32,846 nucleotides of DNA, from assembly GCA_016929855.1 (NCBI GenBank), contig JAFGHY010000005.1, positions 1-32,846 on the forward strand, written 5' to 3'. Shown piece after piece: positions 339 through 31,500 of this stretch. The notes beneath the pieces were generated by a model. That model saw nothing but the letters and a program-made list of their open reading frames with translations, was not told the origin of the DNA and did no database searches. Both the position numbers and the translations under genes were made by a program. The first letter of the stretch is position 1; the number at the start of each line of letters is the position of its first letter. Source of the DNA: Candidatus Woesearchaeota archaeon. GTDB lineage: Archaea; Nanobdellota; Nanobdellia; Woesearchaeales; JAHJEM01.

Positions 339-402
339 GAGAATAAATTAAGGGAGGAGGTTTATAAAGTTTTTGATGAGTACAAGAATACTTTAAACTG
401 AA

Positions 403-513
403 AAATGCAACAACCTAGGCACAGACGGACACTCACAATGTTCGTGTAATGTTCGTGTCCTACGACCCACCCCGATTGGGGCATCTCCCGGGTCGTCTGA
501 CCATGTTGCATTT
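403..513 (-). ncRNA. Candidate structured non-coding element (three-way junction) upstream of cdc6
   Basis: Nested inverted repeats: aaatgcaaca(403-412)/tgttgcattt(504-513), cagac/gtctg, ggacac(427-432)/gtgtcc(455-460), acgaccc(462-468)/gggtcgt(490-496), cccc-gatt-gggg. Extra G-U pairs favour the minus strand. Confidence 0.4.
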
Positions 514-3140: not shown

Positions 3141-3761
3141 ATGGTAAATATATTTACTCTTCTTAAAAGGCTGTTCAGAGGCAGAAAGAATCTCAAGCTG
3201 GGGCTTTACGGACCTCCTAATGGCGGTAAGACTACTTTGGCCAATAAAATCTGTGTGGATTGGATTGGCGAGGAGATGGGTGCTACCAGCAACATTGCTC
3301 ACGAGACACGTGAAGTGCAGATGAAGGAGTCTGTAATCATCAAGAGTAAGGGCAAGGAGCTTGTCTTCAACCTTGTGGACACTCCAGGCATAGCCACCAA
3401 GATTGACTATGAGGATTTCATCAAGCTTGGCATGAAGGAGAAGGAAGCTAAAACAAGGGCTAAGGAGGCTACAAAAGGTGTTATTGATGCCATTAAGTGG
3501 CTGGATGACATGGATGCTGTTGTGATTGTCCTGGATGCAACTAAAGACCCTTACAGTCAAGTCAACATTACTATCATTGGAAATCTGGAAGCTCGTAAGA
3601 TTCCTGTTTTGATTGTTGGGAACAAGATTGACTTGAAGAAGGCAGACCTCAAGAAGGTGCAGGCTGCGTTCCCGCAGTACAAGGTCATAGGCATTAGTGC
3701 CAAGATGGGCAAGAACATGGAAGACTTTTATGAAGCATTGTTTGAGGTGACTGACAAATGA
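3141..3761 (+). CDS. oapA: Era-like GTP-binding protein (archaeal OapA family)
   Basis: G1 GPPNGGKT, G3 DTPG, G4 NKID, G5 SA; HETR and ATKGVIDAIKWLD motifs; coupled to a DUF2073 gene. TATA TTTATATA at 3109-3116. Confidence 0.88.
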   Translation: MVNIFTLLKRLFRGRKNLKLGLYGPPNGGKTTLANKICVDWIGEEMGATSNIAHETREVQMKESVIIKSKGKELVFNLVDTPGIATKIDYEDFIKLGMKEKEAKTRAKEATKGVIDAIKWLDDMDAVVIVLDATKDPYSQVNITIIGNLEARKIPVLIVGNKIDLKKADLKKVQAAFPQYKVIGISAKMGKNMEDFYEALFEVTDK

Positions 3762-4150
3762 GCTTGACCTTGCAGTTCATACCTTACATTGAGATTGAGG
3801 ACTTGGACTCTGAGAAGAGGATTACTAAGTTGCTTAAGATTGTAAAAGCAAACAAGATTATTCTTTTGGAGGGTCGGCTTAAGGGCAATGAGGAGACAGA
3901 GCTCATCCGCCGTACAATGGAAGAGATTGATGACAAATTCAAAGGCATAGAACTTAGTGTCATATTTCCTGACAAGAAGGACGAGGCTTTGTTCAGGAAA
4001 CTGAAATCAATGCTCATCCAGGCTTTGATGGGCGACAGGAAAGGCTTCACAATCATCGGGCCTGCAACAATCGTTAAGGAAATCAAGCAGGATCCTGACA
4101 AGATACAATTGTTCACTGAGGACCTGAAGATTCCTAGGAAGAAGAGATAA
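3758..4150 (+). CDS. oapB: DUF2073 family protein (OapB)
   Basis: IILLEGRL...EETELIRRTMEEID..FKGIE and GFTIIGPATIVKEIK.DP motifs; ATGA overlap with the GTPase. Confidence 0.85.
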   Translation: MSLTLQFIPYIEIEDLDSEKRITKLLKIVKANKIILLEGRLKGNEETELIRRTMEEIDDKFKGIELSVIFPDKKDEALFRKLKSMLIQALMGDRKGFTIIGPATIVKEIKQDPDKIQLFTEDLKIPRKKR

Positions 4151-4196
4151 TTCTTTGTTGTTCTTGTAATCTAGTCCACAGGTAAATGCTTTCTTG

Positions 4197-4320
4197 TTGT
4201 AATTAGAACGGATTGCCTTTTCTCTTCGAGAAAAGGAATTATCAATCTACGCAGCCCAAAAACTGCTGGCAGATTTTTGGGCTGCCTATTGCTTTTGAAT
4301 CAGTTTTAACTGCTAGTAGT
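4197..4320. repeat. Dispersed two-hairpin element, copy 1
   Basis: ccttttctc-ttc-gagaaaagg and gcagcccaaaaa-ctgctggcaga-tttttgggctgc hairpins; near-identical core at 23132-23224. Confidence 0.9.
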
Positions 4321-4400: not shown

Positions 4401-4787
4401 ATGCCACACCAGTGCGTCAATTGCGGGACTTTGTACCAGGACGGTAGCAGTGAGATTCTCAAGGGCTGTTCCTGCGGCTGCAAGCTTTTCTTCTACATAA
4501 AGAAGGACAAACTGGCAGAGAATGAGAGGCCTTTCATCCTTACTAAGGAGCAGAAGCAGCAGATCGAGGAGGACGTGTATGACATCATTGGCGGGGAGAT
4601 TGACAGGGAAAAGCCTGTTGTACTGGATATTGAGAGTATCAACATCCTGAAGCCCGGCAAGTATGAGCTGGACCTGGTTAATCTGTTCAAGAAGAAACAG
4701 CCTTTGATTTACAAGCTGGATGATGGCAAGTACGTCATCGATATTATTGAGACGTTCAAGAAAGCCGGCGCAAAGGAAGCCAAGTGA
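4401..4787 (+). CDS. oapC: Zn-ribbon protein (DUF2072 / OapC family)
   Basis: MPHQCVNCG...ILKGCSCGCKLFFY and ESINILKPGKYELDL motifs. Start moved to 4401, behind a TATA box at 4370-4378. Confidence 0.85.
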   Translation: MPHQCVNCGTLYQDGSSEILKGCSCGCKLFFYIKKDKLAENERPFILTKEQKQQIEEDVYDIIGGEIDREKPVVLDIESINILKPGKYELDLVNLFKKKQPLIYKLDDGKYVIDIIETFKKAGAKEAK

Positions 4788-4793
4788 TTTCTA

Positions 4794-5564
4794 ATGATGC
4801 TAGTTGACTGCCACGCGCACCTGGATTTCGAGGAGTTCGAGAAAGACTTTCCAGGTTTTATCAGACGCCAGGAAGAATCCGGAGTCAAGGCGATCATCGC
4901 AAACGGAGTTAATCCTGAGAGTAACAAGAAAGTCCTCGTCCTGGCAGAACAATACAAGATTATCAAGCCAGCACTTGGAGCTTACCCTACTGACATGTTG
5001 AAGCTGAACTCTCAAGAATATCCTGGTGCCTTGAAATTCATAGAGAAGAACAAGGACAAAATTGTCGCGATTGGAGAGGTTGGATTAGATTTTTCTGAAC
5101 AAACTTCTGACAATGACATCAACAAATCAATACAAATATTCAGAGACATACTACGACTAGTAAAAAAGATTGGCAAACCAGTGATAATACACTCGCGCAA
5201 AGCCGAAGAGAAAGTCTTTGAAATCCTTGAGCATGAACGAATGGATGAAACAAAGAAGGTAGTATTGCATTGTTTTTGCGGAAAGAAGAAGCTCGTTCGG
5301 CTCGGCAAGGAGAGAGGCTATTACTTCACCGTTCCCACAAATATCGGGCGCAACCAGCAGACGCGAATGATTGCTGAAATCATTCCTCTGTCTCACGTGC
5401 TGACAGAAACTGACAGCCCATACCTGCATCCTGACAAGACAAAGTTCCCTAATGAGCCAAGAAATGTTGCCGTGACCATCAAGGAGCTTGCCATTATCAA
5501 GAAAATGGACGCTGAAGAAGTGTCGCAGAATGTGTTCATGAATTATCAGAGACTGTTTCTTTAA
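4794..5564 (+). CDS. tatD: TatD family deoxyribonuclease
   Basis: DCHAHLD, IGEVGLD, IHSRKAE, LHCF, ETDSPY, NEP motifs. Confidence 0.95.
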   Translation: MMLVDCHAHLDFEEFEKDFPGFIRRQEESGVKAIIANGVNPESNKKVLVLAEQYKIIKPALGAYPTDMLKLNSQEYPGALKFIEKNKDKIVAIGEVGLDFSEQTSDNDINKSIQIFRDILRLVKKIGKPVIIHSRKAEEKVFEILEHERMDETKKVVLHCFCGKKKLVRLGKERGYYFTVPTNIGRNQQTRMIAEIIPLSHVLTETDSPYLHPDKTKFPNEPRNVAVTIKELAIIKKMDAEEVSQNVFMNYQRLFL

Positions 5565-9492: not shown

Positions 9493-9667
9493 ATTATTGA
9501 CCTTACTCTTGACCTAATTAATCGGATATATAAATTTTTGTGTGTTTTCACTCAATATTCAATGAATAATTAGGCAAAATTTATAAAAAATACTCACAGT
9601 ATAGCAATTCAGCGTATAGGAATGTGGCAGTTTCACAATATGTTTCTATACCTTACGAGGTCTTGAG

Positions 9668-10111
9668 GTGAGATTTCAAAGAGGACAAGTGTCTGTTGAG
9701 CACATGATTACCATAGCTATAGCAATATTCATCCTGATACCCGGTACTGCGCTGTTCTACAGTTATGCAAAGTCTTCTAATGAAGAAGTGACGCAAAAAC
9801 AGTTGACCAGGATCGGCAATGAGATAGTCAATACTGCGGAATTGGTCAGTGCTTTGGGCGAGAACAGCAGGGTTGTCCTGAAAGTCAGCGTGCCTAATAG
9901 CGTGCAGAACCTCACTATTGACCAGAGTGAAGGAACTGAGATTGTCTTCAATTACACCACGTTTTCAGGCAATAATGAGATGATGTTCTATACTTTTGTG
10001 AACATAACTAGCATCTACGAGCCGAGCATCACTGACGAATTCCATACCGGTCTTGTATTGATTGCTTTCGAGAATATTGGTGATGAAGTGAGGATTACTG
10101 AGCAAAGATGA
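9668..10111 (+). CDS. Archaeal type IV pilin-like protein (class III signal peptide)
   Basis: RG|QVSVE followed by a hydrophobic helix. Confidence 0.85.
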   Translation: MRFQRGQVSVEHMITIAIAIFILIPGTALFYSYAKSSNEEVTQKQLTRIGNEIVNTAELVSALGENSRVVLKVSVPNSVQNLTIDQSEGTEIVFNYTTFSGNNEMMFYTFVNITSIYEPSITDEFHTGLVLIAFENIGDEVRITEQR

Positions 10112-11796
10112 AAATGTCAAAGTATGCCCAATCAAGCCTGGAATTCATTATCCTAGTAGGATTCATGACATTGTTGTTCATGGTATTCTTTTCTGTAGTG
10201 CAGGAGAGTATGGGCAAGGCAAGGGAAGAGCGTGTTGAACGAAAGATGGCTGAGTTGACGGATTTGGTGCACCAAGAAATCAGGAATGCTGATAGAGTTC
10301 ATTCAGGCTATATACGTGTTTTCTACCTGCCTGATACTATTGAGGGCAATCATTATGATATCAGCGTGAATTACAACAAGGAATTGGTGCTTGATTCTCA
10401 AGGGAAGCAGCATGTTGTTTTTCTCGACAGTCCCGTCTATGGGAATCTCACCAAGGGCAGGAACATCATTGCTACTGACAGGGGCAGGGTCTACTTGAAT
10501 ACTGGTCCTGCGCCTGATCTCACGATTGTTGTGGACGGCAATATTAGTGAGTGGGATGTTTTGGGGATACTTCCTCTGGAGGATAACAGCGAAACAACTA
10601 ACTGGTATGAGGATGGTCAAGGTGATTCTGTTTTTGCAGGCGACAATTACAATGAATTGCGCAATGTTTACGTGACGAATGATAATGATTTTCTTTACTT
10701 GAAAATTGATTTTTCGAACTCGAGTAGCAATCTTTTTGACAACGATAATTACATCGGACAGTTGAGCAGGTATGACCTCATAGTTGGTATTGACATTGAC
10801 AGCGACAATGCCACTGGCTATTCTGGAAGATCAGAAAGTCCTGGTGTCGACAATGCTATTCCCCTGGAAGGTATGGAATATTTTTTCCTTGATGATACTG
10901 GCACACTATCCAAGAAAAGGACTGATGCAATAAAGCATAATGCCACAGTATGGGACGAACCAGGTCTTTACGAGATTTGGACGACAGACAGTACTGTTGA
11001 GAGGACGAGAGACTTGGATGATTATGACCTGCAGGATTTGGTTCTTGTTTCATCCGTCGGCAAATCTGAGCATAACGTGCAGTTCAACAAGAAGTCTTCG
11101 AACCTGAACATTCTTCCAATATACGACGGCAATGAGACATGCTTCTTCCTGCCAGTGCACAGCAGGATCAACATCACTGCAGTTGGGTTCGGACTCAATG
11201 ACACCTTGACCGATGCTAGAATATTCCTGCGAACCACTAGTGATTACTTGGCTGTAGGACCGGGAAATTCAATCAGGGGATCTGAGTACTGTGACTTTGA
11301 CATGACTTTGAGCTATGAGAATTTTTCCTACTGCAACATAACTCCATTCCTTGTCAGGGATTCTGATATCACCAGTCATGGTTTCTTTGTGTGCATCAAC
11401 ACGTTGATGGACATGGATAATGCTAATGGCATTTTTGGTGTCAGGTATAACGCGTCAGAACCTAATACTGACGAGGTCCTTACGCATCCTTTGGTGGTTT
11501 GGAATAACCCAGGAACTGGCTTTGTGAGGATTCCTCCAACGTCTGGTGTGGTGAATCTTGCTTTTGGATATAACTTTGAGTCAGAGATAAGTCAAGTAGG
11601 CTTTTTTGCAGATTATCCTGACCCCGAGTATAACGGGCAATTCACTGAAATCGGAATTCCTATCGATGTCATGAACCTTAACAGGGGTGATAGGATAAGG
11701 ATTGCAGTTGAAGGAAAAGACTATCAGAATTATGATATCTATCCTTCTGAGGATAATCTTTTTTCCGGCAATGGCAGTAGTTATGTCATTGAATAA
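10108..11796 (+). CDS. Pilin-like protein with long C-terminal extension including a CBM9/DOMON-like domain
   Basis: KYA|QSSLE class III signal; IVVDGNISEWD, VTNDNDFLYLKIDF, IDIDSDNATGY, EIGIP motifs; ATGA overlap with the upstream pilin. Confidence 0.75.
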   Translation: MKMSKYAQSSLEFIILVGFMTLLFMVFFSVVQESMGKAREERVERKMAELTDLVHQEIRNADRVHSGYIRVFYLPDTIEGNHYDISVNYNKELVLDSQGKQHVVFLDSPVYGNLTKGRNIIATDRGRVYLNTGPAPDLTIVVDGNISEWDVLGILPLEDNSETTNWYEDGQGDSVFAGDNYNELRNVYVTNDNDFLYLKIDFSNSSSNLFDNDNYIGQLSRYDLIVGIDIDSDNATGYSGRSESPGVDNAIPLEGMEYFFLDDTGTLSKKRTDAIKHNATVWDEPGLYEIWTTDSTVERTRDLDDYDLQDLVLVSSVGKSEHNVQFNKKSSNLNILPIYDGNETCFFLPVHSRINITAVGFGLNDTLTDARIFLRTTSDYLAVGPGNSIRGSEYCDFDMTLSYENFSYCNITPFLVRDSDITSHGFFVCINTLMDMDNANGIFGVRYNASEPNTDEVLTHPLVVWNNPGTGFVRIPPTSGVVNLAFGYNFESEISQVGFFADYPDPEYNGQFTEIGIPIDVMNLNRGDRIRIAVEGKDYQNYDIYPSEDNLFSGNGSSYVIE

Positions 11797-11867
11797 GAAT
11801 TATTTAATTATTCAAAAATTATTTTCATTATTTAAAAGATATCAAAAAGTCGTCTCTGGCGGAACAG

Positions 11868-12413
11868 TCAGTCTCTCAGTACCTTGTAGCTTTCATCACT
11901 GCAGTCGATGACTTTGCTTGGCGTGTCAAGTGTTACGTCCTCTTCTACTATCAGGTCCACTTGCGACATTATATGAAATGAGATATCATCAATGGTCTTT
12001 GGCTGCTGCTCGTTGTGGCGGTTGGCACTTGTCGTTATTAGTGGCTTTCCATATTGTCTTATCACGTTCTTTATCCAATGGTCAGGTATCCGCACCCCGA
12101 TTTTCATGTTGCTTGTCACACTCATTCCAACAGCATTCATGTTCTTTAATGGCAGTACTATGGTGTATGGTCCTGGAAGTTTTTGGAGCCACTCTCTTGC
12201 ATCATCATTCAACACGCAATTTTTTTCTATCCATTCCATTGATGGTACTATCACAGAAAAGTTGTTTGTTGTCTTTTTTAGTGTCCGAATTCTTTCTATA
12301 AGATTGTCATTTGTGGCATCGCATCCTATCCCCCAGAGCGTATCTGTCGGATAAACCACAATCTTGTTTTGGAAGTCCTCTGGTTGGAGAGTGTAAATGT
12401 TCTTTACTATCAT
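11868..12413 (-). CDS. tsaC: L-threonylcarbamoyladenylate synthase (YrdC/TsaC-type, no Sua5 C-domain)
   Basis: VYPTDTLWGIGCDA, PGPYT, GVRIP, TTSAN, PSKVID. Start moved to ATG 12413. Confidence 0.92.
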   Translation of the reverse strand: MIVKNIYTLQPEDFQNKIVVYPTDTLWGIGCDATNDNLIERIRTLKKTTNNFSVIVPSMEWIEKNCVLNDDAREWLQKLPGPYTIVLPLKNMNAVGMSVTSNMKIGVRIPDHWIKNVIRQYGKPLITTSANRHNEQQPKTIDDISFHIMSQVDLIVEEDVTLDTPSKVIDCSDESYKVLRD

Positions 12414-12629
12414 GTCTGACAGGATAAATTTGCAGAATAAAAAACTAACGGAATGATTTTTGAGAGAAAACCGGTTTTTCTGCAGAACCACAACCTTTAT
12501 AAAAAACCTCTTAACGCAATAAGAAAGTGTGATTTTTGTGTTAGTATATTGGTATTATATGCACAAAATATGCATAAAAACAGCATTTTAGAGAGTTACG
12601 TTGACAGAGCACTTATGACAGGTGAGAAA

Positions 12630-13373
12630 TTGAGAAAAATTGCTATTATCAATCAGAAGGGCGGTGTTGGTAAGACCACGACAACGATCAACCTGGCTGC
12701 AGGGCTTGCAAAAAGGGATTTCAAGGTCCTTATACTTGACTTGGACCCTCAGGGCAACATTTCAACCAGCCTTTGCGTGAAATCAGAAAAGAACATGTAT
12801 CATATTCTTGTGGACGATGTTAATCCTAAAGAGTGCATAGTGAATGTTCAGGAGAACATTGATGTGATCACTTCTGACCAGAGCCTTGAGAAGGCTGAGA
12901 TGATTCTTGCTGGCGAGACTTCCAGGGAGACTGTTCTGAGGCGGGTCATGGATGGCGTCAACAATTACGATTTTGTGATATTGGACTGTCCGCCTAGCTT
13001 GGGCCTGCTGAACCAGAACGCACTGCTTTATGCCCGAGAGGCTTTCATCCCTGCAAGCACGGACTTTCTGGGTATTAATGCTTTGAAAAAGATGCAAATT
13101 GCTATTGAGGCGTTAAACGATATTTTCAACCACAAGATATTCATCAGCGCAGTCATACCCACAATGTATGACCGGAGGAACAAGACTTGCATTGAACACT
13201 ACAATGAACTGCAGAGAGGCTACAGCGACGTTCTCACAAATCCCATAAGGGTCAACAGCAAGTTGAAGGAAGCGCCGTCTCAAGGAAAATCAATTTTTGA
13301 TTACGCGAACAGCAGCCGTGGTGCAAAGGATTATGAGAAGCTTGTGGAGATAATCATAGATGAGGGTGAGTAG
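12630..13373 (+). CDS. parA: ParA/Soj family ATPase
   Basis: Deviant Walker A NQKGGVGKTTT, DLDPQGN, DCPPSLG, PTMYD, L.EAPS.GK. Likely TTG start at 12630 behind AGGTGA (alternative ATG 12615). Confidence 0.93.
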   Translation: MRKIAIINQKGGVGKTTTTINLAAGLAKRDFKVLILDLDPQGNISTSLCVKSEKNMYHILVDDVNPKECIVNVQENIDVITSDQSLEKAEMILAGETSRETVLRRVMDGVNNYDFVILDCPPSLGLLNQNALLYAREAFIPASTDFLGINALKKMQIAIEALNDIFNHKIFISAVIPTMYDRRNKTCIEHYNELQRGYSDVLTNPIRVNSKLKEAPSQGKSIFDYANSSRGAKDYEKLVEIIIDEGE

Positions 13374-14367
13374 TTGAGTTTTCCAGCTCTTTTCTAGCGG
13401 CTTCGTATACTCTCATGTTGTAAAGCTCGTTTTCAACATCCCTGACAAACGCGTCCTGTTTTGCTTTGACTAGAGAGTCAAGTGTATTCTGGAGCTCCGC
13501 CTCCACCGTGCTTCTTGAGATTTTTTTGCCGAGCCTTTCTTGGAGCTTGAGTGACGTGGCAACACGGTTGATGTCCCTTGCAGACAGCATTCTGTATTCG
13601 GTGCCTGACAATTGGTCCATGAGAGCCTGTTCCTCTAGATAATCCTTGACTTTTGTGCCTTCCAGCTGGTGTGACAGCAGCTGCACGAATTGTTCAGGTG
13701 TTACAGGTCCTTTCCAGAATACAGGTCTGCATCTGGAGAGCACTGCATGGTCGAACTTTTCTATGTAGTTCGTGGTGAAGATACACGCGTAATTACCTCG
13801 ATAGTCCGGAGGCTGCATTCCATGGAGTGCTGCAGTTATGACTCTGGAGTCTTCTTCATTTGACATTGCAGTCCTTCTTGAGAATACTGTGTCTGCATCA
13901 TCACCCAGTATCAAGCCAGTACCTTGCGGGTCTTTCATGTAGGAGAATATCTTTTCTAGGTTCTTTGTTGAATCGCTGTACATGTGGGTCCTGAAGCCAT
14001 TGTCTAGCCAGATTACCCGCGAGTCTGCTCTGCGGTTCCTGATATAATCTTCTGCTGCAGACAATATCATGGTCTTGCCTCCTCCTGGAGGCCCGTATAC
14101 CACAATGTTTGGAGGGTTCGCGTAACGATCCAGGATTGGATTGGTCTGCGCTTGAGGGTCGTACTGAAGTAGTGTGTCACAAACTTCCTGAATCTTAAGC
14201 AACTGGGCGTGCGATCCAATGATGTTCTTGAACTCTTTAGGTACTTTGTCTTTCAGAGCAACCGCTGAAGTGGTTCTTGCAGTTGTTCCCTTAGTGATTC
14301 CTGCAGTCATGTGTACAGGATCTTGCTCAGTGCCCTGATTAGAGTGCATTTGTTGGGATGCTTCCAA
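13354..14367 (-). CDS. Divergent classic-clade AAA ATPase
   Basis: Walker A GPPGGGKT, pore-loop region THMYSDSTKNLEKIF, Walker B LILGDD, second region of homology TTN..EKFDHAVLSR; AGGTGA SD overlapping the upstream stop. Confidence 0.85.
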   Translation of the reverse strand: MEASQQMHSNQGTEQDPVHMTAGITKGTTARTTSAVALKDKVPKEFKNIIGSHAQLLKIQEVCDTLLQYDPQAQTNPILDRYANPPNIVVYGPPGGGKTMILSAAEDYIRNRRADSRVIWLDNGFRTHMYSDSTKNLEKIFSYMKDPQGTGLILGDDADTVFSRRTAMSNEEDSRVITAALHGMQPPDYRGNYACIFTTNYIEKFDHAVLSRCRPVFWKGPVTPEQFVQLLSHQLEGTKVKDYLEEQALMDQLSGTEYRMLSARDINRVATSLKLQERLGKKISRSTVEAELQNTLDSLVKAKQDAFVRDVENELYNMRVYEAARKELENSTTHPHL

Positions 14368-14377
14368 TCATATCACC

Positions 14378-15613
14378 TTAGTGCATGCCATCGCGCTCGT
14401 CCCATGACTTCTTGATTCTGGCCAATCTTTCTTTTGCCTGGGCAAAAGTGTCCTTGCCTTTGAATTGCTCTGCCTGTTTTGAGCTTTCGTCAGCTACCTG
14501 CTGTGCTATGGAATCGTACGTCAGACTTTGTCCTGCTATCCTCTGCTTTTTTCCTTCGATGACTTCAGAGAGGTTTGATATTATTCCTGCATAGTCTACT
14601 GTAGTTCCTCCGACTGCCTGCCTCAATTGTTCAAGAGTTGAGATTGAGTTGTTTGTTGATTCATGGACTTCTATGAGGTTGTAGAGGAATCTTGCGTCTG
14701 ACACTTGTGTCGTGACTGCCTGTATATCCTGCATCATTGATTTTTCTATGGCTTCAAGCGCCACAAGACCCCTGTCATTCACTGCTACGCTGTTCACTGC
14801 TTCTGTCATCTGGAGTTCAAGCTGGTGTTTCCTGTCTTCAAGCTCTTGCCTTTGGTCTGAGAGTTTTGGAAGCATAAAATTCTTTGACGGATCGTCTTTT
14901 ATCTGCCTCATGTCATGCTCGTACGCCTGGATTCTTGCCAGTGTCTGCTGGTACTCATCGTCTATAAGGTCTGTTGCAGCAAACGCAGTGGCTCTTTGGT
15001 TCCTGTAATCCCTTATTTTGTTTCTCAATTTTGTGAGCTCCCTGTTTTCTGATTTCAGGTAGTCATCTGTCGCGTGCATGATTGTGCTTATTCCTTCTTT
15101 GTAATTGTTTATCACCGTGTGTTCAAGGTCGATTTCAAGCTCTTCAGCATGCCTGCTCTCGAGAGCCTGCAAGATGGGGTTTCTCAAGCCGGCAACCCTT
15201 GCAAGATTATAAGCAATCTTTTCTGAGGTGCTGGTGTGCACTACATTAACTGGAATGTTTACTGGCCGATCAGATGTTCTGCTGTCAAGGTCCAGTCTTG
15301 AAAAATCCTGGCGCGTGTAGTCTGTCATCTCATAAAAGTGCTTGGACTCTGTTGTTCTGGGTGATTGAGGTGTCTTCAATGAAGCCTTTGCGAGTTGCCT
15401 GTCGAACTCTGAAAGGTCTCTAAGACCTGCAGTGTATTGTGGTGTCTGGTATGATGCATGATGTGATGCATGATGTGATGCTCGGGATGATGACTGTGCT
15501 TCTGATGCGTTCAGGATGTCTTTCAGTCTTGTGCTTTGTCCGGGTTGTTCTGGGTTCAGCTCTGTAATTCCGTTGTTTGCTTGATTGATTATTGATTCAT
15601 ATCCCTTTTCCAT
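14378..15613 (-). CDS. Long coiled-coil protein with disordered N-terminus (hypothetical)
   Basis: Heptad-like helical region from ~aa 140 to the end, no TM. Start set at ATG 15613 behind GAGGTGA. Confidence 0.8.
   Translation of the reverse strand: MEKGYESIINQANNGITELNPEQPGQSTRLKDILNASEAQSSSRASHHASHHASYQTPQYTAGLRDLSEFDRQLAKASLKTPQSPRTTESKHFYEMTDYTRQDFSRLDLDSRTSDRPVNIPVNVVHTSTSEKIAYNLARVAGLRNPILQALESRHAEELEIDLEHTVINNYKEGISTIMHATDDYLKSENRELTKLRNKIRDYRNQRATAFAATDLIDDEYQQTLARIQAYEHDMRQIKDDPSKNFMLPKLSDQRQELEDRKHQLELQMTEAVNSVAVNDRGLVALEAIEKSMMQDIQAVTTQVSDARFLYNLIEVHESTNNSISTLEQLRQAVGGTTVDYAGIISNLSEVIEGKKQRIAGQSLTYDSIAQQVADESSKQAEQFKGKDTFAQAKERLARIKKSWDERDGMH
15452..15481. repeat. 12-bp in-frame tandem repeat (2.5 copies) encoding ASHH-ASHH-AS
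   Basis: tgatgcatgatg x2 + tgatgc. Confidence 0.85.
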
Positions 15614-15926
15614 AGGATTCACCTCATACAAGCAGAAGATAAAGGATTAAATCTAGATTTCTTGGTCTTGGTCGCAAAATCAATGCTTCAAATCGAATAT
15701 TAATCCACTTCCTAGAATTATTTTTATTCTATGCAGTCATTGACAGAAAAACATCAAATAACACAAAATAATTTCGACAATATTTGCAACTTGATAAAAT
15801 ATTTTTCGGAAAAAATTTAAATTATTAAAAAAATTTCTCACAAATAAAAAAAAAATTCAATTACTGCGTTGTATTTTCAAGATTTCTTGCCAAACTCACT
15901 TTTTATTTGCTTCATATCAGTTATTC

Positions 15927-17624
15927 ATGCGACCTTCAGAAAAAGAATTACAAACACTTGAGGAAATAATCAGACTTTCTGAATCACTCAAAGCAAGCCA
16001 AAGCTCTGCCGACAACTTCAACAGCTCTTCTGCCAATGACTGGCTTCAGAACATATATTCTGCTGTACAGAATCTTGCAGGTCATTACGCACCAATCCTT
16101 GCCTTGACCAGGCCGGAAATCCTTGATGCATTGCATGTAATCCAGGAATTTGTCGTCGATATATCAACATCAGTGCTGTTCTCTGATGAAAACAGAGGAT
16201 ACAATATCAATGGAAGATACAATGTAAACAGCAGGCCGGCAGGCCGGCAGATCAGAGAATTGTCAGAGAGTATCTACAGTACTATTAGTGAATTCACAAG
16301 TCCGAGTGCGCGCCAGAGTCTGCCTAATTTCGTGCTTGATCACATGCCTTGCAATCAAAGCAAATCCAAGAGCCCAGATTATTATAATACTCTGGAGAAA
16401 GGCACGCAGGTCTCGCATAAGTCAGACAGCAGATCCAGGTTGGACTCGTGCAAGCAGGAGTTTAACAGGCAGAGAGGACATTCAGATATTCTATTAAGTC
16501 TTCGTCCTACCGCAAGCCTTGATTTGAGGAATGAAATTTCTGTGCAGCTTCAGAAGATGCTGGGCACAAGAGTGTCTGCGTACTCTCACATCCCCTATCT
16601 CAGGATTCAAGCAGGGTTAGGGGATGAACAGTCAATTTTGAGGTTGTTTAACCAAAAAAGAATTGTTTCAGATTACTTTTCTGCTGATAAGAGGGAGGTT
16701 CTTGGTAATGCAGAGACTTCTCAATTGTATTTTAGTCCTAAACCAATTTTGTCCCGGCGTGCAAGGATGAGAAAGAGCATGATGCTGTGGAATCTAAAGA
16801 ATATTGGAGTGTATGATGCTCACGCTTTCACTAGGGGTGCTGGTTCAATTGTGCTTGTGCTGGATACAGGCGCAGACTATAACCACAATGAGATCAAGCA
16901 TGCATTTGGTGATGAAAAGGGCTATAATTTTATTGCAGGAAACTCCAATCCCTTGGATGGTGATGGGCATGGAACGCACGTTTCAGGGACCATTGCGGGT
17001 ATTGATACTGGTGTCGCGCCTGAAGCTGGATTGCTGGCAGGCAAGGTTCTGTCAGACGATGGTTGGGGCAGTGAAGCAGATATTCTTGAAGGTGTGGAGT
17101 ACGGTATTGACAAGGGTGTTGACGTCATCAGCTTGAGCTTGGATGGTGAGGGTTACAGCAGGGCTAGCGAACTGGTCTTCAGGGCCGCTTACGATCAGGG
17201 CATAGTCGTTTGTGCTGCGGCAGGCAATGACCATTACGGCTTGGGAGATGATCCTTACAACTATCCTGCTAGCTATGAGGGCGTGTTGAGTATTGCTGCT
17301 GTTGACATAAACAACGAGCACGCTGACTTCAGCCAGGTTAATGACAGGGTTGACATCAGTGCGCCTGGAGTCAATATTAGGAGTTGTCTGCCTGGAAACA
17401 GGTACGCGGATTACTCCGGGACTAGTATGGCAACGCCTCATGTAAGCGGCGTGATGGCTCTTGCGAGGTCTCTTGATTCTGGATTGGGTAATTGTGACTT
17501 GGAGCAGATGCTCTTGTACACGTGCAAGGACATCGGTGATTCGGCAAATATGTTCGGTCACGGTCTGATACAAGCAGACCAATTGGTTGACCTTGTCAAG
17601 GAAGCAATGGAGGAAGTTGTATGA
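15927..17624 (+). CDS. S8 subtilisin-like serine protease with long N-terminal extension, no signal peptide
   Basis: Catalytic motifs LDTG, HGTHVSGTIAG, AAAGND (oxyanion Asn) and GTSMATPHV all intact; N-terminus hydrophilic. Confidence 0.93.
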   Translation: MRPSEKELQTLEEIIRLSESLKASQSSADNFNSSSANDWLQNIYSAVQNLAGHYAPILALTRPEILDALHVIQEFVVDISTSVLFSDENRGYNINGRYNVNSRPAGRQIRELSESIYSTISEFTSPSARQSLPNFVLDHMPCNQSKSKSPDYYNTLEKGTQVSHKSDSRSRLDSCKQEFNRQRGHSDILLSLRPTASLDLRNEISVQLQKMLGTRVSAYSHIPYLRIQAGLGDEQSILRLFNQKRIVSDYFSADKREVLGNAETSQLYFSPKPILSRRARMRKSMMLWNLKNIGVYDAHAFTRGAGSIVLVLDTGADYNHNEIKHAFGDEKGYNFIAGNSNPLDGDGHGTHVSGTIAGIDTGVAPEAGLLAGKVLSDDGWGSEADILEGVEYGIDKGVDVISLSLDGEGYSRASELVFRAAYDQGIVVCAAAGNDHYGLGDDPYNYPASYEGVLSIAAVDINNEHADFSQVNDRVDISAPGVNIRSCLPGNRYADYSGTSMATPHVSGVMALARSLDSGLGNCDLEQMLLYTCKDIGDSANMFGHGLIQADQLVDLVKEAMEEVV

Positions 17625-17965
17625 ACAAAAAAAATGTGGACGAACAAAATATGGAAGCAGGCAAAGGTAGTAGTACAAGCAGTGATGAAAGCGCAGGGAA
17701 TCTAGAAACATACATTATAGAATATCAAGGGGATATACTGGAACAGATTAAAGTGCATCTTCAGAATGCTGGATTGGTTGAAGTGCACAAGCGAGAAAAA
17801 GCAGTACACCCGCACTATGTATGCTTTGACTATGCTAACCTTGTTGTTGCGAGAATTCAAGGTGTTGAGCAGTCTTCAATGCTTGAGAAACTGGCTAAGG
17901 AATACAGATCTTCCGAGCATGAACGGGTCAGGGTTTATATTCCCAAAGAATTTAGGAAAATGTGA
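17621..17965 (+). CDS. Small protein resembling a subtilisin propeptide / I9 inhibitor fold
   Basis: ATGA overlap with the protease and GGAGG SD at 17609-17613; YIIEY...FDYANLVVARI...LEKLAKE...VRVYIP pattern recalls I9 (by eye). Confidence 0.55.
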   Translation: MNKKNVDEQNMEAGKGSSTSSDESAGNLETYIIEYQGDILEQIKVHLQNAGLVEVHKREKAVHPHYVCFDYANLVVARIQGVEQSSMLEKLAKEYRSSEHERVRVYIPKEFRKM

Positions 17966-17997
17966 ATTAAAAAGATAAGAAAATTCAAAAAAAGATA

Positions 17998-18159
17998 TTA
18001 TGAAGATTTTGGAACGCAGCAGACGCATTCGCATCTTACATCAAAGATATAACCAAGATTTTCTTCATTCTGCTTGCAAGCATCCTCGCCGAGTGTATTG
18101 GCAATCCTTCCTCCAAGTTCTGCACATCCATTTGCAGTAGGACCTTGCAGAGTATCTCC
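17998..18159 (-). pseudogene. In-frame Cys-rich C-terminal domain stranded behind a premature TAA
   Basis: Same frame continues after the TAA at 18160-18162: GDTLQGPTANGCAELGGRIANTLGEDACKQNEENLGYIFDVRCECVCCVPKSS*, with no Met in this frame. Confidence 0.7.
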
Positions 18160-18948
18160 TTAGTCTATGATATTTTCAGAGTCGATATTTTCAGTGTCTA
18201 TGATGTTCGTGCTTGTTACTTTCCATCCGTCTATCATAACTTCATATCTTTTTGTCTCATCAACAGACCACTTCTCCAGACTGACTTGCCAGCATCCTGG
18301 GCAGAATGCAGCAATAACTTCCACAACTGTCATGCCATACTCTGCACCAACAGAATTTACAGCCATTTCTGCTGCCTGAAGCTCCTCTGTGTTCAGCTCC
18401 CATGCTCTCACGCAAGCTTGTGCATCTTCATTCCATGTGTAGCCTGCAGGTCCAAGGCATCCGTGCTCGTCGCGCTGGCCTCCTATCAACCCGTTGTCAA
18501 GCGCATTATCATCCTGCTCAACAGTCTCATTGACTGCCTCTACAAAGGATCTGCCGTCTGGAGTGGTACATTGTCTTGGATAGGATTCCATGACAGGATA
18601 TCCTGCTTCCTCACATTCGACGAAGCTGTCAACGTTTTCTGAAGCCCAGACTTTCTTGTTTGTGCATTTGTTGTCAAGACACATGCAGTCTTCTGCACTG
18701 TAGGCTGCCAGCGCCTCGTACTGCAATGTGCAAGCCAGGGCAGGATTAGGTTGTTTGATTGATTCCTTATTGACGCAATTCTGTGGATGGCAAACAGGTT
18801 CAGGAACGCAGTCAGAGTCTTTTTCGCAGTATGAAGCGTCAGCATTTATTTCAGTTACCTTGCATCCTGTCAGCAAAACTGATGCAAAAACAGAAGCTAT
18901 CACAAGCATTAAAGTCCATTTTTTTGTTGTTGTTTTCATCGTTACCAT
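18160..18948 (-). CDS. Putative lipoprotein with several small Cys-rich (disulfide) domains
   Basis: Lipobox-like LLTGC; modules CEKDSDCVP..CHP..CVN, SFVECEEAGYPVMESYPRQC, IGGQRDEHGCLGPAGYTW. Confidence 0.8.
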   Translation of the reverse strand: MVTMKTTTKKWTLMLVIASVFASVLLTGCKVTEINADASYCEKDSDCVPEPVCHPQNCVNKESIKQPNPALACTLQYEALAAYSAEDCMCLDNKCTNKKVWASENVDSFVECEEAGYPVMESYPRQCTTPDGRSFVEAVNETVEQDDNALDNGLIGGQRDEHGCLGPAGYTWNEDAQACVRAWELNTEELQAAEMAVNSVGAEYGMTVVEVIAAFCPGCWQVSLEKWSVDETKRYEVMIDGWKVTSTNIIDTENIDSENIID

Positions 18949-19090
18949 CTCTTTTTCAGTCTATTTGACTTTGTATGACCAGTATAGGTTGATGTTGTAT
19001 TTAAATCTTGTTTACACTTTAGAAATGGTTGAAGTTATCTTAACCTTACTAATAAAAAAATCTTTGGTGAAATTATTTCATGAAATAAGC

Positions 19091-19720
19091 TCATTTATAA
19101 ACATCGTTGACTTTCATGTACCAGACATACATGTCCAACTCTGCAGGGGTTATGTCAAGTTTTCTTGCGACAGTATTGAATTTTTCTTCTATTTCAAGGT
19201 AGATTTTTCTTGACAGTGCTTTTGGTTTTTCCCGCAGCAGGCCATAGTCTACCATCATGCTGAGAACGTGTCTGTCAAGGATTGCAAGATTCTTTGCTCC
19301 AGTGTTTCGCAGGAAATGAGATGCTTCCTTGTAACCAAGGCCTTTGATGCTCATGACAATCCATTCCCTGGCTTCATGCTCTCCCAGCTCATTCACCTTG
19401 CCCTTTAGGACAGGTATATGCGGTCTGGCTTCGACAATGAACCTTGTTTTGTTGTTGTGAAAGCGGTGCTTGTGCTTAATTATTACTTTTGTTATTTCAT
19501 CAGGTGCTTTGTTTGCAAAACCCTCTGCACCTAATTCATCTTGTATCTTTATTGCTGTTTCCTGCTTTGAGTTGGCCGTCAGAATGCAGAAGCAAAGCTC
19601 TGAGAACCATTGTTTTTCGTCTAGATTTTTGTACTGGTGGAATCTTGCAAGCCCTTCTGTAACTTTCTCTTTTACAGGGCTGTTCTTCAGTTTTTCAACT
19701 TCTTCTATTAGTCGTTTCAT
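19091..19720 (-). CDS. ogg: 8-oxoguanine DNA glycosylase/AP lyase (archaeal Ogg2 type)
   Basis: ELCFCILTAN, HRF, HhH IKGLGYKEASHFLRN, AILDRHVL, C-terminal Lys. Confidence 0.93.
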   Translation of the reverse strand: MKRLIEEVEKLKNSPVKEKVTEGLARFHQYKNLDEKQWFSELCFCILTANSKQETAIKIQDELGAEGFANKAPDEITKVIIKHKHRFHNNKTRFIVEARPHIPVLKGKVNELGEHEAREWIVMSIKGLGYKEASHFLRNTGAKNLAILDRHVLSMMVDYGLLREKPKALSRKIYLEIEEKFNTVARKLDITPAELDMYVWYMKVNDVYK

Positions 19721-19727
19721 TTTCCAA

Positions 19728-20450
19728 TCATTCTTTTTTCATGTAAAATTGTCTTTTCTTTTCTGAAAAATGCTCAATTGCATACCTGAGCATTGTCCTT
19801 GGCATTTGCTGGTAATTCTTCTTCAGGAATTCTTCCTCAACCTTAATGTCACGCTTGCCAATCTCTCTCAGCATCCACCCTACTGCCTTGTGTATCAGGT
19901 CGTGGTCATCATTAAGCAGGATTTCTGCTATCTTGAGGGCGTGTTCAAAATCATTGTTCCTTATGAATTCAAAACAGCTGATTATTGAGATCCTTCTTTC
20001 CCACATGCTTTTGCTCTTAGCGAGCCTGTATAATGTCAGGTGCTCTAAAGGATCATGATTACGGATGAACTTTCCAACTATCCTGTGGGCTGTGCAGTCA
20101 ACAAGGTCCCAGTTGTTTATGCTTCTGGTATTCTTCAGGTAGAATTCATATATCCTTTTACGTTCATCAAATTGGGTCTTGTCGTATTTATTAATAAGTA
20201 TGAATAGTCCGGTCATGCGACTTTCGTGTTCTTTTGCAGCCAGGAGTTTTTGGATTTCGGGAAGTGTCAATGCAGTGTATTTCTTGGCTATCTGCCTTTG
20301 TTGGCCCATTGTCAGTCCCAGGAATTTGTCTCCCTCTCCGTAGTCTCCTTTTCCTGTCTTGAAGTATCTGGAACATGATTCTGCTCGGATATTGTCTTTT
20401 AATCTGTGAAGGTCTTTTGTTACATTTACTGCAAATGGTTGTTCAGTCAT
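19728..20450 (-). CDS. alkD: DNA alkylation repair protein (AlkD-like HEAT-repeat glycosylase)
   Basis: YFKTGKGDYGEGDKFLG, NNWDLVD, WERR, LIHKAVGWMLREIGK, MPRTMLRYAIE. Confidence 0.88.
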   Translation of the reverse strand: MTEQPFAVNVTKDLHRLKDNIRAESCSRYFKTGKGDYGEGDKFLGLTMGQQRQIAKKYTALTLPEIQKLLAAKEHESRMTGLFILINKYDKTQFDERKRIYEFYLKNTRSINNWDLVDCTAHRIVGKFIRNHDPLEHLTLYRLAKSKSMWERRISIISCFEFIRNNDFEHALKIAEILLNDDHDLIHKAVGWMLREIGKRDIKVEEEFLKKNYQQMPRTMLRYAIEHFSEKKRQFYMKKE

Positions 20451-20540
20451 AGTAATGAGAACAAATAAAAATAATAAAAAACTTGTGTAAGCATAGCTAG
20501 TGCTTGAGATTATAGCATGTTACAGGAGTGTATTGTGCTA

Positions 20541-21103
20541 TTATATCTTACCTACCATGTCCATTCCTGGCTTAAGGGTCGTCCCCCCTTTCTTCCAGCT
20601 GGCAGGGCATACTTCTCCTTTATGGTCTCGGACGAACTGGGCTGCTTCTATCTTCCTTAGAAGCTCATCTGCACTCCTGCCTATGCTGTTGTCGTGCACT
20701 TCGTAGGCTTTCAGGATGCCTTCAGGGTCTATTATGAACGTCCCTCGCAGGCTCAATCCTGCGTCGTATATGTACGTCTGGTAGTCCTTTGAAATCTGTC
20801 CTGTCGGGTCTGCCAGCATCGGAAACTTGATTTTCTTGATTGTTGGAGAGTTGTCCCACCATGCCTTGTGCACGAATTCTGTGTCTGTGCTTACACTCAT
20901 GATCTCAACCCCTAGTTTCTGGAATTCCTGGTACTTGTCCGCCAACTCTCCGAGCTCTGTGGGCACACGAATGTGAAGTCTGCAGGGTAGAAGAAGAGCA
21001 CTACCCACTTTCCTTTGTAGTCTTCAAGACTGATTGTCTTGAATTCATTGTTGTGGAACGCTTTTGTTACAAACTGCGGTGCTTTTTCGTTTATGCATAT
21101 CAT
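20541..21103 (-). pseudogene. ahpC: 2-Cys peroxiredoxin (AhpC) split by a 1-nt deletion at ~20961
   Basis: [12 protein letters not shown] in one frame; TELGEL...RGTFIIDP...GR...EVCPASW in the other; GGAGGT SD before ATG 21103. Confidence 0.9.
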
Positions 21104-21263
21104 TGTTTTACCTCCTGCTGCTTGTTTGTCAGATTATGATTTTCAGTCAATGCCACCTAGCGAACCTTAGAATAAACTTTGAGATTACATATCGCACAGT
21201 TGTGTTACTCATCGAGATTCTCAGCAATGTGAGCGTGGCATTGAAAGATATGTTTTTTTGTGC

Positions 21264-21878
21264 TTATTTCTTTGCCACTAAAAAGTTCTTGTTGACCTGT
21301 TCCCAATTGATAACCTGAAAGAATGCTTCAATATAGTCTGGCCTTTTGTTCTGGTACTTGAGATAGTATGCGTGCTCCCAGACATCAAGCATCAATATAG
21401 GTGTCTGGCCTTCAGTGTAAGGACTGTCTTGGTTTGCTGTGCTCGTTATTGCCAGCTCCCTGTTCTTGTCGACAACAAGCCAGGCCCATCCGCTTCCGAA
21501 CCTGGTTGCTGCTGCACTGGTGAATTCACTCTTAAAGCTCTCGAAGTCTTTCCACTTCGCCTTTATTGCTTCTGCAACAGGTCCTTGAAAAGGCACGTCT
21601 TTCTTCAGGACTTTCCAGAACATCGTGTGGTTTAGGTGGCCGCCGCCGTTATTTCGGACTGCTGTCCTGATGTTTTCAGGCACTGAATTGATGTTTGTTA
21701 TGATTTCTTCGACGGTCTTTGCCTGAAGTTCCGGCTGGTCTTTCAGTGCAGCGTTTAACTTGTTAAAGTATGCCTGATGGTGCTTGCTGTAGTGGATTTC
21801 CATTGTTCGCGCGTCTATGTGTGGTTCAAGTGCAGCATAGTCATATCCTAATGGTTCCAATTCGTTTATTTTTGTCAT
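21264..21878 (-). CDS. sodA: Fe/Mn superoxide dismutase, Mn-type signature
   Basis: [38 protein letters not shown]; GAGGTGA SD. Confidence 0.95.
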
Positions 21879-21918
21879 AATATCACCTCGCGTTAAATTG
21901 TGTTTGTCTGGTAACTGG

Positions 21919-21948
21919 TTTTGTTCTGCTCATTTTTGTTCTGCTCAT
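21919..21948. repeat. 15-bp perfect tandem duplication between the Fur-family gene and sod
   Basis: ttttgttctgctcat x2. Confidence 0.85.
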
Positions 21949-21962
21949 GTCTGAATTAGGCA

Positions 21963-22340
21963 CTATCTGCATTTCTTGCAGGTTCCGTAGAACATTATGT
22001 TCACATACTCAACATTGTCTCCTTCTGGTTTAACATTGTTTAGTGCATGCTCAGTAAGTTTGTCCTGAAATAAGTCTTTTATCTCTCCGCATTTCTTACA
22101 TATGAAATGCTGGTGATTCTTGACAGTAGCCTCGAACCTGTAGCCATTACTGGCCCTGAATCTTGTGATCTGCCCGTTTTCTGCGAGATGGTTGAGGTTC
22201 CTGTACACTGTTGCAAGGGTTATTGTTGGGATTTCCTTGCTCACTTCCTTGTATACTTGCTCTGCGCTTGCATGATTTTTGGCCTCCTTCAGATATTCTA
22301 GGATTTTCATTCTTTGGACTGTGTTTCTTGTTTTCTTCAT
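21963..22340 (-). CDS. perR: Fur-family transcriptional regulator, PerR-like
   Basis: TVQR..IL, H.SAEQVY, LATVYRNL, HQHFICKKCG, C-terminal GTCKKC; heads a sod-ahpC cluster. Start set at ATG 22340. Confidence 0.8.
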   Translation of the reverse strand: MKKTRNTVQRMKILEYLKEAKNHASAEQVYKEVSKEIPTITLATVYRNLNHLAENGQITRFRASNGYRFEATVKNHQHFICKKCGEIKDLFQDKLTEHALNNVKPEGDNVEYVNIMFYGTCKKCR

Positions 22341-22411
22341 TTTTACACCTTCTTTCAAGGTTTTTTACCCTGATTCCTTAAGCTTTCAGTTAGCATTTAT
22401 TTATCATTTAG

Positions 22412-22426
22412 TAATAATTATTATTA
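22412..22426. promoter_or_regulatory. Fur/Per-box-like 7-1-7 operator
   Basis: TAATAAT-T-ATTATTA perfect inverted repeat just downstream of the minus-strand BRE/TATA CGAAAGGTTTATATA (22442-22456). Confidence 0.65.
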
Positions 22427-22501
22427 GAGATATATTATTAATATATAAACCTTTCGGTGTCCTGCCGATAGGAATATAAATGCTCAGTACACCCTAATAT
22501 C

Positions 22502-23095: not shown

Positions 23096-23121
23096 TTACT
23101 CTTTTTTGCACAATAAAAAAA

Positions 23122-23259
23122 TTTTTACTACTTGTAATCGGAATGTATTGCCTTTTCTCTTCGAGAAAAGGAGATTCAATCTACGCAGCCCAAAAATCTG
23201 CTTGCAGTTTTTGGGCTGCCTATTATTTTTGTATAAATTTAAATTAGAAGTAGTAAAAA
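23122..23259. repeat. Dispersed two-hairpin element, copy 2, bounded by 12-bp perfect inverted repeats
   Basis: tttttactactt (23122-23133) / aagtagtaaaaa (23248-23259) enclose the same two hairpins as copy 1. Confidence 0.9.
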
Positions 23260-23279
23260 AATTGGATTAACAAATAATA

Positions 23280-31232: not shown

Positions 31233-31500
31233 TAAGGCAGAAGAATTTTTTACTGCATAATAACTACCAATATTGTTTTGTCGACGTGAAACATAAAGAA
31301 TTAGGATTATCGAAATCAAAAACACGCCCTAAATGCTCAAATTCCTGGAAAAATTTGGCAAGATCAAAGCAGGATTTAATCTGAACGAGGTATGCAACTG
31401 GCAAAAATCCACGGTATAAAAACCGAGGCATGCTTCTTCAATAACAATCAAGAATGATTATTCAAATAAAAGAAAAAAAAGAAAAATATCCAACAATTGC

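Follow-up and report, generated by a model that had tools for sequence, protein, structure and literature searches.

A Dispersed Family of Two-Hairpin Repeats

Two copies of a structured element of ~130 nucleotides (nt) occur in a 32,846-nt stretch of DNA from a Candidatus Woesearchaeota archaeon, which we refer to in its entirety as the window. Both belong to a family of about 27 members that, among the genomes searched, was found in this one only. The family probably represents a lineage-specific, noncoding foldback DNA repeat, an archaeal counterpart of intergenic repeats such as repetitive extragenic palindromes and bacterial interspersed mosaic elements (REP/BIME) or transposable elements of the miniature inverted-repeat type (MITEs). 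The window corresponds to contig C11 in an assembly of 0.91 Mb and 92 contigs that is 80% complete and has a G+C content of 43.8% (its contigs are cited by C numbers below, and genomes of relatives by G numbers). The genes are archaeal, including those for an OapA-type GTPase, OapB, OapC, RtcB, Hjc, eIF2-gamma, and ribosomal proteins S24e and S15.

Copies were identified by iterated nhmmer searches of the genome and with a covariance model that was based on 20 full copies. On iteration to convergence, nhmmer yielded 26 nonoverlapping matches. The covariance model recovered 24 full or near-full copies of ~130 to 140 nt each at E<1e-9, including one that is cut by the end of contig C45 and two with internal insertions (C24 and C64). 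It additionally reported two half copies (C56:2699-2804 and C66:3807-3955) and one diverged copy (C31:6494-6626). A preliminary description had proposed a dispersed, structured, noncoding family from the two copies in the window, and the ~27 copies located by these methods establish that the family is not just this pair. A fuzzy search for the 5′ end found no orphan 5′ ends in the genome.

The order of parts within the unit is conserved. A T-rich run (positions -6 to -1) precedes the motif CTACTWGTAAT, which is followed by GGGATGGATTGC, hairpin 1, a linker that holds either CTAC or GTRG, hairpin 2, and a tail with ATCCAT and an inverted terminal motif, ending in ...AGTAGTA. The termini (CTACTWGTA... 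and ...TACWAGTAG, to which some copies add a T-run and an A-run) are imperfectly complementary over ~8 to 10 nt, and over 17 of 18 positions in window copy 2. The build is that of a mosaic, with types of hairpin, linker, tip, and tail combined differently among copies and with hairpin sequences swapped wholesale. Individual copies are 65 to 90% identical to their nearest relative and, given this present-day divergence, the family may no longer be active.

Both Hairpins Are Maintained by Compensatory Changes

Both hairpins have been maintained through many compensatory changes. In a MAFFT alignment of 20 copies, the 23 base pairs of the two hairpins make up 453 cells, of which 93.4% are paired; this value was reached in none of 500 shuffles (76.7 ± 1.1%), and sliding the partners out of register gave only 39 to 57%. 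Pairs changed on both sides number 17 of 23, compared to 9.6 ± 1.6 in the shuffles, although all aligned sequences are paralogues of one genome and these counts reflect fewer events than cells. In an alignment-free test, the two arms of a given hairpin 1 pair far better with each other (-11.5 kcal/mol) than with the arms of other copies (-6.0 kcal/mol; p<5e-5). The same is true of hairpin 2 (-14.8 versus -8.5 kcal/mol; p<5e-5), including its tip (p=1.5e-4).

Outside the hairpins, weak covariation is evident in an inner closing stem, ATGGAT/ATCCAT (p=0.0035). Copy-specific pairing is not significant for the outer termini (p=0.61), for the linker against the segment that follows hairpin 2 (p=0.99), for the flanks outside the element (p=0.19), or for the entire 5′ end against the entire 3′ end (p=0.087).

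Hairpin 2 also contains a part that hardly varies. Its five middle A-T pairs form an A5/T5 tract kept in 20, 19, 19, 20, and 16 of the 20 copies, while its seven outer and three tip pairs are variable. When nearest-neighbor copies are compared, stem positions differ at 14.4% (105/729) and other positions at 24.2% (254/1050), a difference to be read with the nonindependence of such pairs and the poorer alignment of non-stem columns in mind. The hairpins are under constraint, an observation that fits selection for continued mobilization of master copies and a function for the host equally well.

Organization of the Copies in the Window

The two copies in the window and the genes on either side of copy 1 are laid out as follows.

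3758..4150, + strand: oapB, upstream of copy 1 (Pfam PF09846, E=4.7e-18)
4193..4319, + strand: copy 1, whole element (nhmmer and covariance model match C11:4190-4333, 133.6 bits; alignments)
4193..4203, + strand: copy 1, 5′ terminal motif CTTGTTGTAAT (position-wise conservation and alignment; family consensus CTACTWGTAAT)
4207..4213, + strand: copy 1, inner closing stem, 5′ arm AACGGAT (family consensus GATGGAT; self-versus-cross duplex test, p=0.0035)
4216..4236, + strand: copy 1, hairpin 1, CCTTTTCTC-TTC-GAGAAAAGG, 9-bp stem with TTC loop (folding and alignment)
4237..4250, + strand: copy 1, linker of class A, containing TCAATCTAC (alignments; the other linker class is GGAGTRGTC)
4251..4285, + strand: copy 1, hairpin 2, 12-bp stem with CTGC/GCAG tip and bulged A at 4273 (folding and alignment)
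4299..4305, + strand: copy 1, inner closing stem, 3′ arm ATCAGTT (duplex test, p=0.0035)
4310..4319, + strand: copy 1, 3′ terminal motif CTGCTAGTAG (the 5′ terminal consensus in inverted, imperfect form)
4401..4787, + strand: oapC, downstream of copy 1 (Pfam PF09845)
23128..23255, + strand: copy 2, whole element (nhmmer and covariance model match C11:23125-23267, 134.4 bits)
23142..23148, + strand: copy 2, inner closing stem, 5′ arm AATGTAT (sequence)
23151..23171, + strand: copy 2, hairpin 1 (sequence identical to hairpin 1 of copy 1)
23185..23219, + strand: copy 2, hairpin 2, with bulged T at 23197 and tip CTGCTTGCAG (folding)
23233..23239, + strand: copy 2, inner closing stem, 3′ arm ATAAATT (sequence)

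Because copies 1 and 2 are 84% identical over 124 nt (E=2.9e-30 within the genome), their likeness is not due to chance. They differ at none of 46 stem positions and at 15 of 66 non-stem positions. Both fold far more stably than shuffled sequences (z of -5.9 on the + strand and of -5.1 and -5.7 on the - strand). As described previously, the two lie on the same strand shortly behind stop codons, copy 1 being 43 nt past the oapB stop (4150) and copy 2 being 32 nt past the stop of a DUF3335 peptidase gene (23095), and hairpin 1, the linker, and hairpin 2 are located in both where they had been placed. The conserved unit is slightly longer than first drawn, spanning ~4187 or 4193 to 4319 and 23122 or 23128 to 23255. 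Specifically, the conserved T-rich run may extend copy 1 by ~6 nt, from ~4187, and copy 2 with its T-run and A-run covers 23122-23261, with inverted-repeat ends TTTTTACTACTTGTAAT and ATTAGAAGTAGTAAAAA.

All eight scored pairs of hairpin 1 have changed on both sides within the family. In hairpin 2, a variable 7-bp outer stem is followed by the near-invariant A5/T5 clamp and then by the tip. The 3′ terminal motif is motif-like rather than part of a covarying stem (copy-specific complementarity, p=0.61). The closing stem had been presented as a covarying helix, and its sequences are indeed exact, with two compensatory swaps around a G·A mismatch, but across the family its covariation is weak. The bulge in hairpin 2 also lies on opposite sides in the two copies, as had been observed. 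The tip inversion offered to explain this is plausible, given that both TG and CA tips occur; single-nucleotide indels explain it equally well, because the copies on C50 and C49 have both bulged bases paired.

Genomic Setting and Distribution

The copies are all intergenic. Their neighbors are housekeeping genes, such as those for ribosomal proteins, aminoacyl-tRNA synthetases, Hjc, PolB, eIF2-gamma, and TIM, with no transposase gene among them. Based on crude open reading frame (ORF) calls, the element is found in 9 of the 156 spacers between convergent genes, 6 of the 151 between divergent genes, and 7 of the 497 between tandem genes, which amounts to an enrichment in convergent over tandem spacers (odds ratio 4.3, p=0.005). 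Spacers with an element exceed the median length of their class by ~170 to 240 nt. Long introns are present in tRNA genes of this genome (C31:5002-5223, C90:7896-8056, and C74:12402-12556). Those of tRNA-Leu, tRNA-Trp, and tRNA-Cys were considered as related sequences and are unrelated to the element; the introns of tRNA-Leu(CAA) and tRNA-Trp contain GATGAG...CTGA strings that resemble C/D boxes, as judged by eye only.

No member of the family was found in 40 relatives by BLAST, in six genomes of the same family by covariance model, or in 150 genomes of the same order by covariance model with stricter filters. A 24-base specific pattern gave no matches in JGI metagenome contigs and IMG/VR, a hairpin-2 pattern gave none in IMG/VR, and plasmids gave none. 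This genome is the sole representative of its genus in the collection, and restriction to this genome holds among the genomes searched. Scans with a 17-base pattern gave 117 loci in genome contigs and 28 in viral contigs, approximately the number expected by chance, and the covariance model finds the element at none of these.

The location of copy 1 between oapB and oapC was correctly noted in the preliminary description, but the start of oapC requires revision. The longest ORF begins at GTG 4338; the most likely start is ATG 4401, because relatives align only from this methionine (MPHQCVNCG), and a TATA-like CCTTATAAAT lies ~37 nt upstream of it. With this start, 250 nt separate oapB from oapC, and the element fills ~130 nt of them. 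Among relatives, no more than 90 nt lie between the last aligned residue of OapB and the start of OapC in 9 of 12 GTDB genomes, and no more than 66 nt in 14 of 21 metagenome loci; the element is present at none of 39 oap loci. This comparison amounts to a coarse argument for an empty site, one that falls short of junction-level resolution, that the element has entered and split the normally compact oapABC cluster beside replication-origin genes. Even the closest relatives in OapC (72% identical in metagenomes and 62 to 77% in GTDB genomes) are too distant for junctions to be compared.

Five other oap loci, L082 (G002), L092 (G019), L247, L249, and L261, have oapB-oapC spacers of ~180 to 450 nt whose content is unrelated and partly GC-rich. 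It may be that this site repeatedly accepts insertions.

Indications That the Element Acts as DNA

Several features of the family lean toward a role as DNA rather than RNA. Where only one side of a stem pair has changed, the result is G·U in 12 cases and A·C in 14, such that wobble tolerance is alike on the two strands, and both strands fold equally well. Loops of hairpin 1 occur in both orientations (TTC versus GAA on C72, and TGC versus GCA on C50), as do tips of hairpin 2 (TG versus CA on C50 and C49). This fits what flipping between the arms of an inverted repeat would do in DNA. Position-wise conservation reveals nothing upstream of position -7 and thus no shared promoter at the usual distance, and the mosaic exchange of modules points the same way.

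Comparisons with known RNAs were also negative. Rfam 15 gave no matches at the gathering score in the window and none at E<=1 in nine loci with copies. Bulge-helix-bulge, C/D box, and H/ACA box readings were considered and set aside, with the motifs absent as judged by eye only. Among the sequencing runs listed, the stretch occurs in a single DNA run, which is its probable source, and in no RNA run, and two RNA sequencing runs from the same study contain next to nothing of this organism.

Nesting and a Stem Shared with Other Repeats

The genome also carries several other small hairpin repeat families, and elements are found inside one another. A 43-nt mini-element, consisting of the hairpin CCTCACCC-TAAA-GGGTGAGG followed by TATGCTTTAATAACAATCA and having AATCA on both sides, is nested in the hairpin-2 loop of the copy on C64 (C64:8296-8353) and in the tail of the copy on C12 (C12:4979-5028). 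The hairpin-2 loop is uninterrupted in copies C63, C78, and C20_11914, and further copies of the mini-element lie on C36, C91, C51, C23, and C17. At two hybrid loci, C56:2699-2875 (-) and C66:3702-3955 (+), a GC-rich repeat and a T-run are followed by hairpin 2 and the tail, with the 5′ half of the element missing.

This GC-rich repeat is ~100 nt long, has the core CCTACGACCCACCCCGGATGGGGCATCCCCCGGGTCGTCTG, and gave 18 matches at E<=1e-3 in a single-sequence nhmmer search. A copy lies in the window (401-512, +), and others include C66:3702-3869, C56:2773-2875, and those on C62, C50, C41, C13, C79, C59, C58, C90, C87, C84, C67, and C52. The repeat encloses a variable hairpin, and its outer stem differs in sequence between copies but stays complementary. 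There is no Rfam match. Some copies are near tRNA genes (on C38, C90, and C80 here, and at three of six loci in G004, a genome of another genus). The core gives six BLAST hits in G004 and none in 39 other relatives.

The A5/T5 clamp of hairpin 2 is not confined to the present family. Its stem, CAAAAACTGC...GCAGTTTTTG, recurs at 11 loci of G004 with loops of 23 to 31 nt (23 nt at 10 of the 11; for example, C9:7406-7448 and C29:26047-26089), and is found in none of 39 further relatives; a reversed-pattern control gave no matches. At all 11 loci, the clamp is inside GC-rich composite repeats, and GTAG is directly 5′ of the stem at the six loci where the GC-rich core precedes the clamp. Because the stem is kept across differing loop lengths and element contexts, these data suggest that the clamp is recognized in its folded form.

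Three additional repeats were observed. One with inverted ends CAATGCCAC...GTGGCATTG occupies window positions 21136-21258 and has relatives on C72 (beside a copy of the main family), C54, C78, and C2. Window positions 31314-31419 are a member of a three-member repeat whose other two intervals are on contig C3. Lastly, a motif of the form GGCAACAAC..GCGCAAA..ATGTCTCAT..AGGTTTT... occurs directly downstream of some GC-rich repeats (C87:~5000-5070, C52:~16060-16140, C58:~2040-2120, and C36:~4040), and probably belongs to a 16-member cluster from the self-BLAST of the genome.

Weighing the Foldback Repeat Interpretation

A nonautonomous, mobile repeat of the REP/MITE kind, as was initially proposed, best fits the combined observations. 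These include the copy number, the intergenic placement, the occurrence in one genome, the expanded oap spacer, the mosaic build, the nesting, and the inverted loops. Mobility and its mechanism are what we infer from these sequence patterns. In the scheme that we envision, copies would have arisen by transposition-like spread, with the hairpins being read as folded single strands by their shape plus a few fixed bases. The reader could be a trans-acting enzyme encoded outside the assembled 80% of the genome, and copies would survive best where they are least harmful, notably between convergent genes.

A number of findings weigh against this interpretation. The assembly has no matches to PF01797, PF07282, PF01609, PF13358, PF00665, PF00872, or PF01548, which cover the Y1, TnpB Zn-ribbon, DDE_Tnp_1, DDE_3, rve, IS256-type, and IS110-type families, a negative limited by its 80% completeness and by the fact that repeats often remain unassembled. 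Diverged paralogous genes aside, self-BLAST revealed no repeat in the assembly of the size of an insertion sequence (IS), only small repeats totaling 145 intervals and 16.2 kb. Inverted repeats at the termini are both short and imperfect. Neither a target-site duplication nor a fixed target sequence is discernible around the copies, although the fuzzy 3′ boundary limits this test.

Other points against it concern the history of the copies. There is no exact empty site at the oap locus, where OapC of the nearest relative in the collections is 72 to 77% identical, and a joined-flank search found no paralogous empty sites. One DNA sequencing run (contigs, ~6x) shows no insertion polymorphism. Across three runs compared with the window, which gave low-depth contigs, no joint spans either copy; one joint connects 9539 to 23120, with a shorter side of 21 nt. 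The copies are old, yet their stems differ less than the remaining sites, and this constraint could equally reflect a function for the host. In tandem spacers, an apparent co-orientation of the element with its genes in six of six contexts becomes six of seven when a tRNA gene is counted, which is not significant and gives a weak hint of a transcription-related bias.

Alternative Explanations

Given that hairpin constraint fits a host function equally well, an explanation in those terms retains weight, although we judge it unlikely. The element, whatever its origin, might serve the host as a cis-acting module, either stopping or insulating transcription in both directions or stabilizing RNA. 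Oligo-T tracts are termination sites for archaeal RNA polymerase, and transcripts from the flanking genes would meet such tracts at the edge of the element, in hairpin 2 (T5 on both strands), and in hairpin 1 (T4 on both strands), with the hairpins then protecting the 3′ ends. Consistent with this, the A5/T5 tract is nearly invariant while the surrounding stem covaries, the T-run is conserved at the 5′ edge, copies are enriched between convergent genes, and conservation is higher in the stems than elsewhere in the element. In addition, 16 of 23 copies with a known 5′-side neighbor follow a co-oriented gene, ~10 of them starting 34 to 76 nt past its stop. However, 6 to 7 copies are located between divergent genes, where no terminator is needed, and relatives manage without the element at the same loci. 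Moreover, T-runs at the outer edges would halt transcripts before these reach the hairpins, and the enrichment between convergent genes is also expected from selection against harmful insertions.

A broader and more doubtful idea is that the hairpin modules are not decaying junk, but the working parts of a transposase-independent, shape-recognized system of small-genome archaea. The best candidate for such a part is the A5/T5-clamp hairpin, which is common to this family and to the unrelated GC-rich repeat in a second genus. The modules might be portable, bidirectional terminator or insulator cassettes, or substrates of a hairpin-binding enzyme that is still to be identified. If true, such a system would explain genome-specific, covarying hairpin repeats in genomes of DPANN archaea and of the Candidate Phyla Radiation that have no recognizable transposases.

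The preliminary description also noted a resemblance to IS200/IS605 ends, but a link to these elements is not supported. According to this explanation, left and right end hairpins would have been joined into a palindrome-associated derivative that a Y1 enzyme of the HUH type moves as single-stranded DNA. Such enzymes do fit the recognition of folded hairpins, and GTAG/CTAC motifs are present at both termini and beside hairpin 2, with GTRG lying 2 nt away from the stem in one class of linker and GTAG directly abutting the clamp hairpin in G004. The missing target duplication is expected of IS200/IS605 elements, and the archaeal family to which this organism belongs has Y1 transposases elsewhere (one match in G004 and five in G001). 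Nevertheless, Y1 transposase and TnpB were not found in its own assembly, and G001, with five Y1 matches, has no such repeats. The G004 enzyme was examined as a possible partner and rejected, being an ordinary IS200-type TnpA (NF033573, 92.7 bits; the REP-associated model is below its cut-off) whose flanks share nothing with the repeats. Furthermore, hairpins 1 and 2 are unrelated in sequence, the TCAA that suggested the resemblance is present in only ~9 to 10 of 24 linkers, and the flank 5′ of the element contains no fixed tetra- or pentanucleotide, being only T-rich. Thus, an IS200/IS605 derivative is very unlikely.

Least probable of all is a family of independently transcribed, trans-acting small RNAs, the other possibility raised at the outset. 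Such RNAs would be suited by covariation that is strong in two helices and weak in the closing stem, by stable predicted folds, by the lack of coding potential, and by an AT-rich stretch just upstream of the element, but they are disfavored by confinement to one genome and absence from the 39 orthologous oap loci, by G·U pairs no commoner than A·C on either strand, by inverted loops and wholesale exchange of hairpins, and by the lack of both promoter-distance conservation and Rfam matches, and we know of no precedent for a trans-acting RNA with ~25 diverged paralogues in a ~1.1-Mb genome.

Comparison with Known Repeat Systems

Among the closest parallels to this putative foldback DNA repeat are the bacterial REP/BIME repeats (and REPINs), which are likewise intergenic, high in copy number, and hairpin-forming. 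They too are mosaics built from a few motifs. Enrichment after gene ends is common to both. The GTAG (or CGTC) tag at one foot of the REP stem has a less certain counterpart here. In the GGAGTRGTC linker class, GTRG is 2 nt from hairpin 2 and not flush with the stem, and in the other class ...CTAC is directly at the stem with opposite polarity. Further differences are the archaeal host, the ~130-nt unit, and the two unlike hairpins in place of one REP or an inverted REP pair, and the REP-associated transposase RAYT (PF01797) was not found in the 80%-complete genome. In both systems, the stem is kept through complementary changes in subfamilies; for REP families, one report describes subfamilies with alternative complementary stem residues (PMC3733652).

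IS200/IS605 ends also have subterminal hairpins that are read as single strands, and these elements make no target duplication. The present family differs from them in its unlike hairpins and in having no fixed target or cleavage tetranucleotide, and neither TnpA nor TnpB was found in the assembly.

Bacteria have MITE-like repeats of 100 to 200 nt, including ERIC/IRU, Correia/NEMIS, RUP, and BOX. These have in common with the present family their size class, intergenic dispersal, inverted ends, long foldback structure, and absence of coding capacity. Classical MITEs are marked by clear inverted repeats at their termini, by duplication of the target site, and by a parent IS, unlike the present family with its imperfect ends of ~8 to 10 nt, no visible duplication, and no parent element found.

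The full-text literature searched on DPANN repeats offered only a general census of MITEs, and Rfam has no match. According to that census, MITEs exist in 20% of archaeal genomes, and the highest archaeal densities are in DPANN, in Altiarchaeum and a Woesearchaea genome (PMC11602168). The family reported here appears to be undescribed, may be listed in the catalogue of that census, and is of a kind already known. As such its existence is unsurprising, and its value is as a well-resolved, structured intergenic repeat in an ultra-small archaeal genome. It combines numerous compensatory changes in a single genome with hairpin modules that are exchangeable and a stem motif common to two genera. 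For genome annotation, such stretches should not be called small RNA genes or riboswitches. They also provide a lead on how repeats spread through genomes without a visible transposase.

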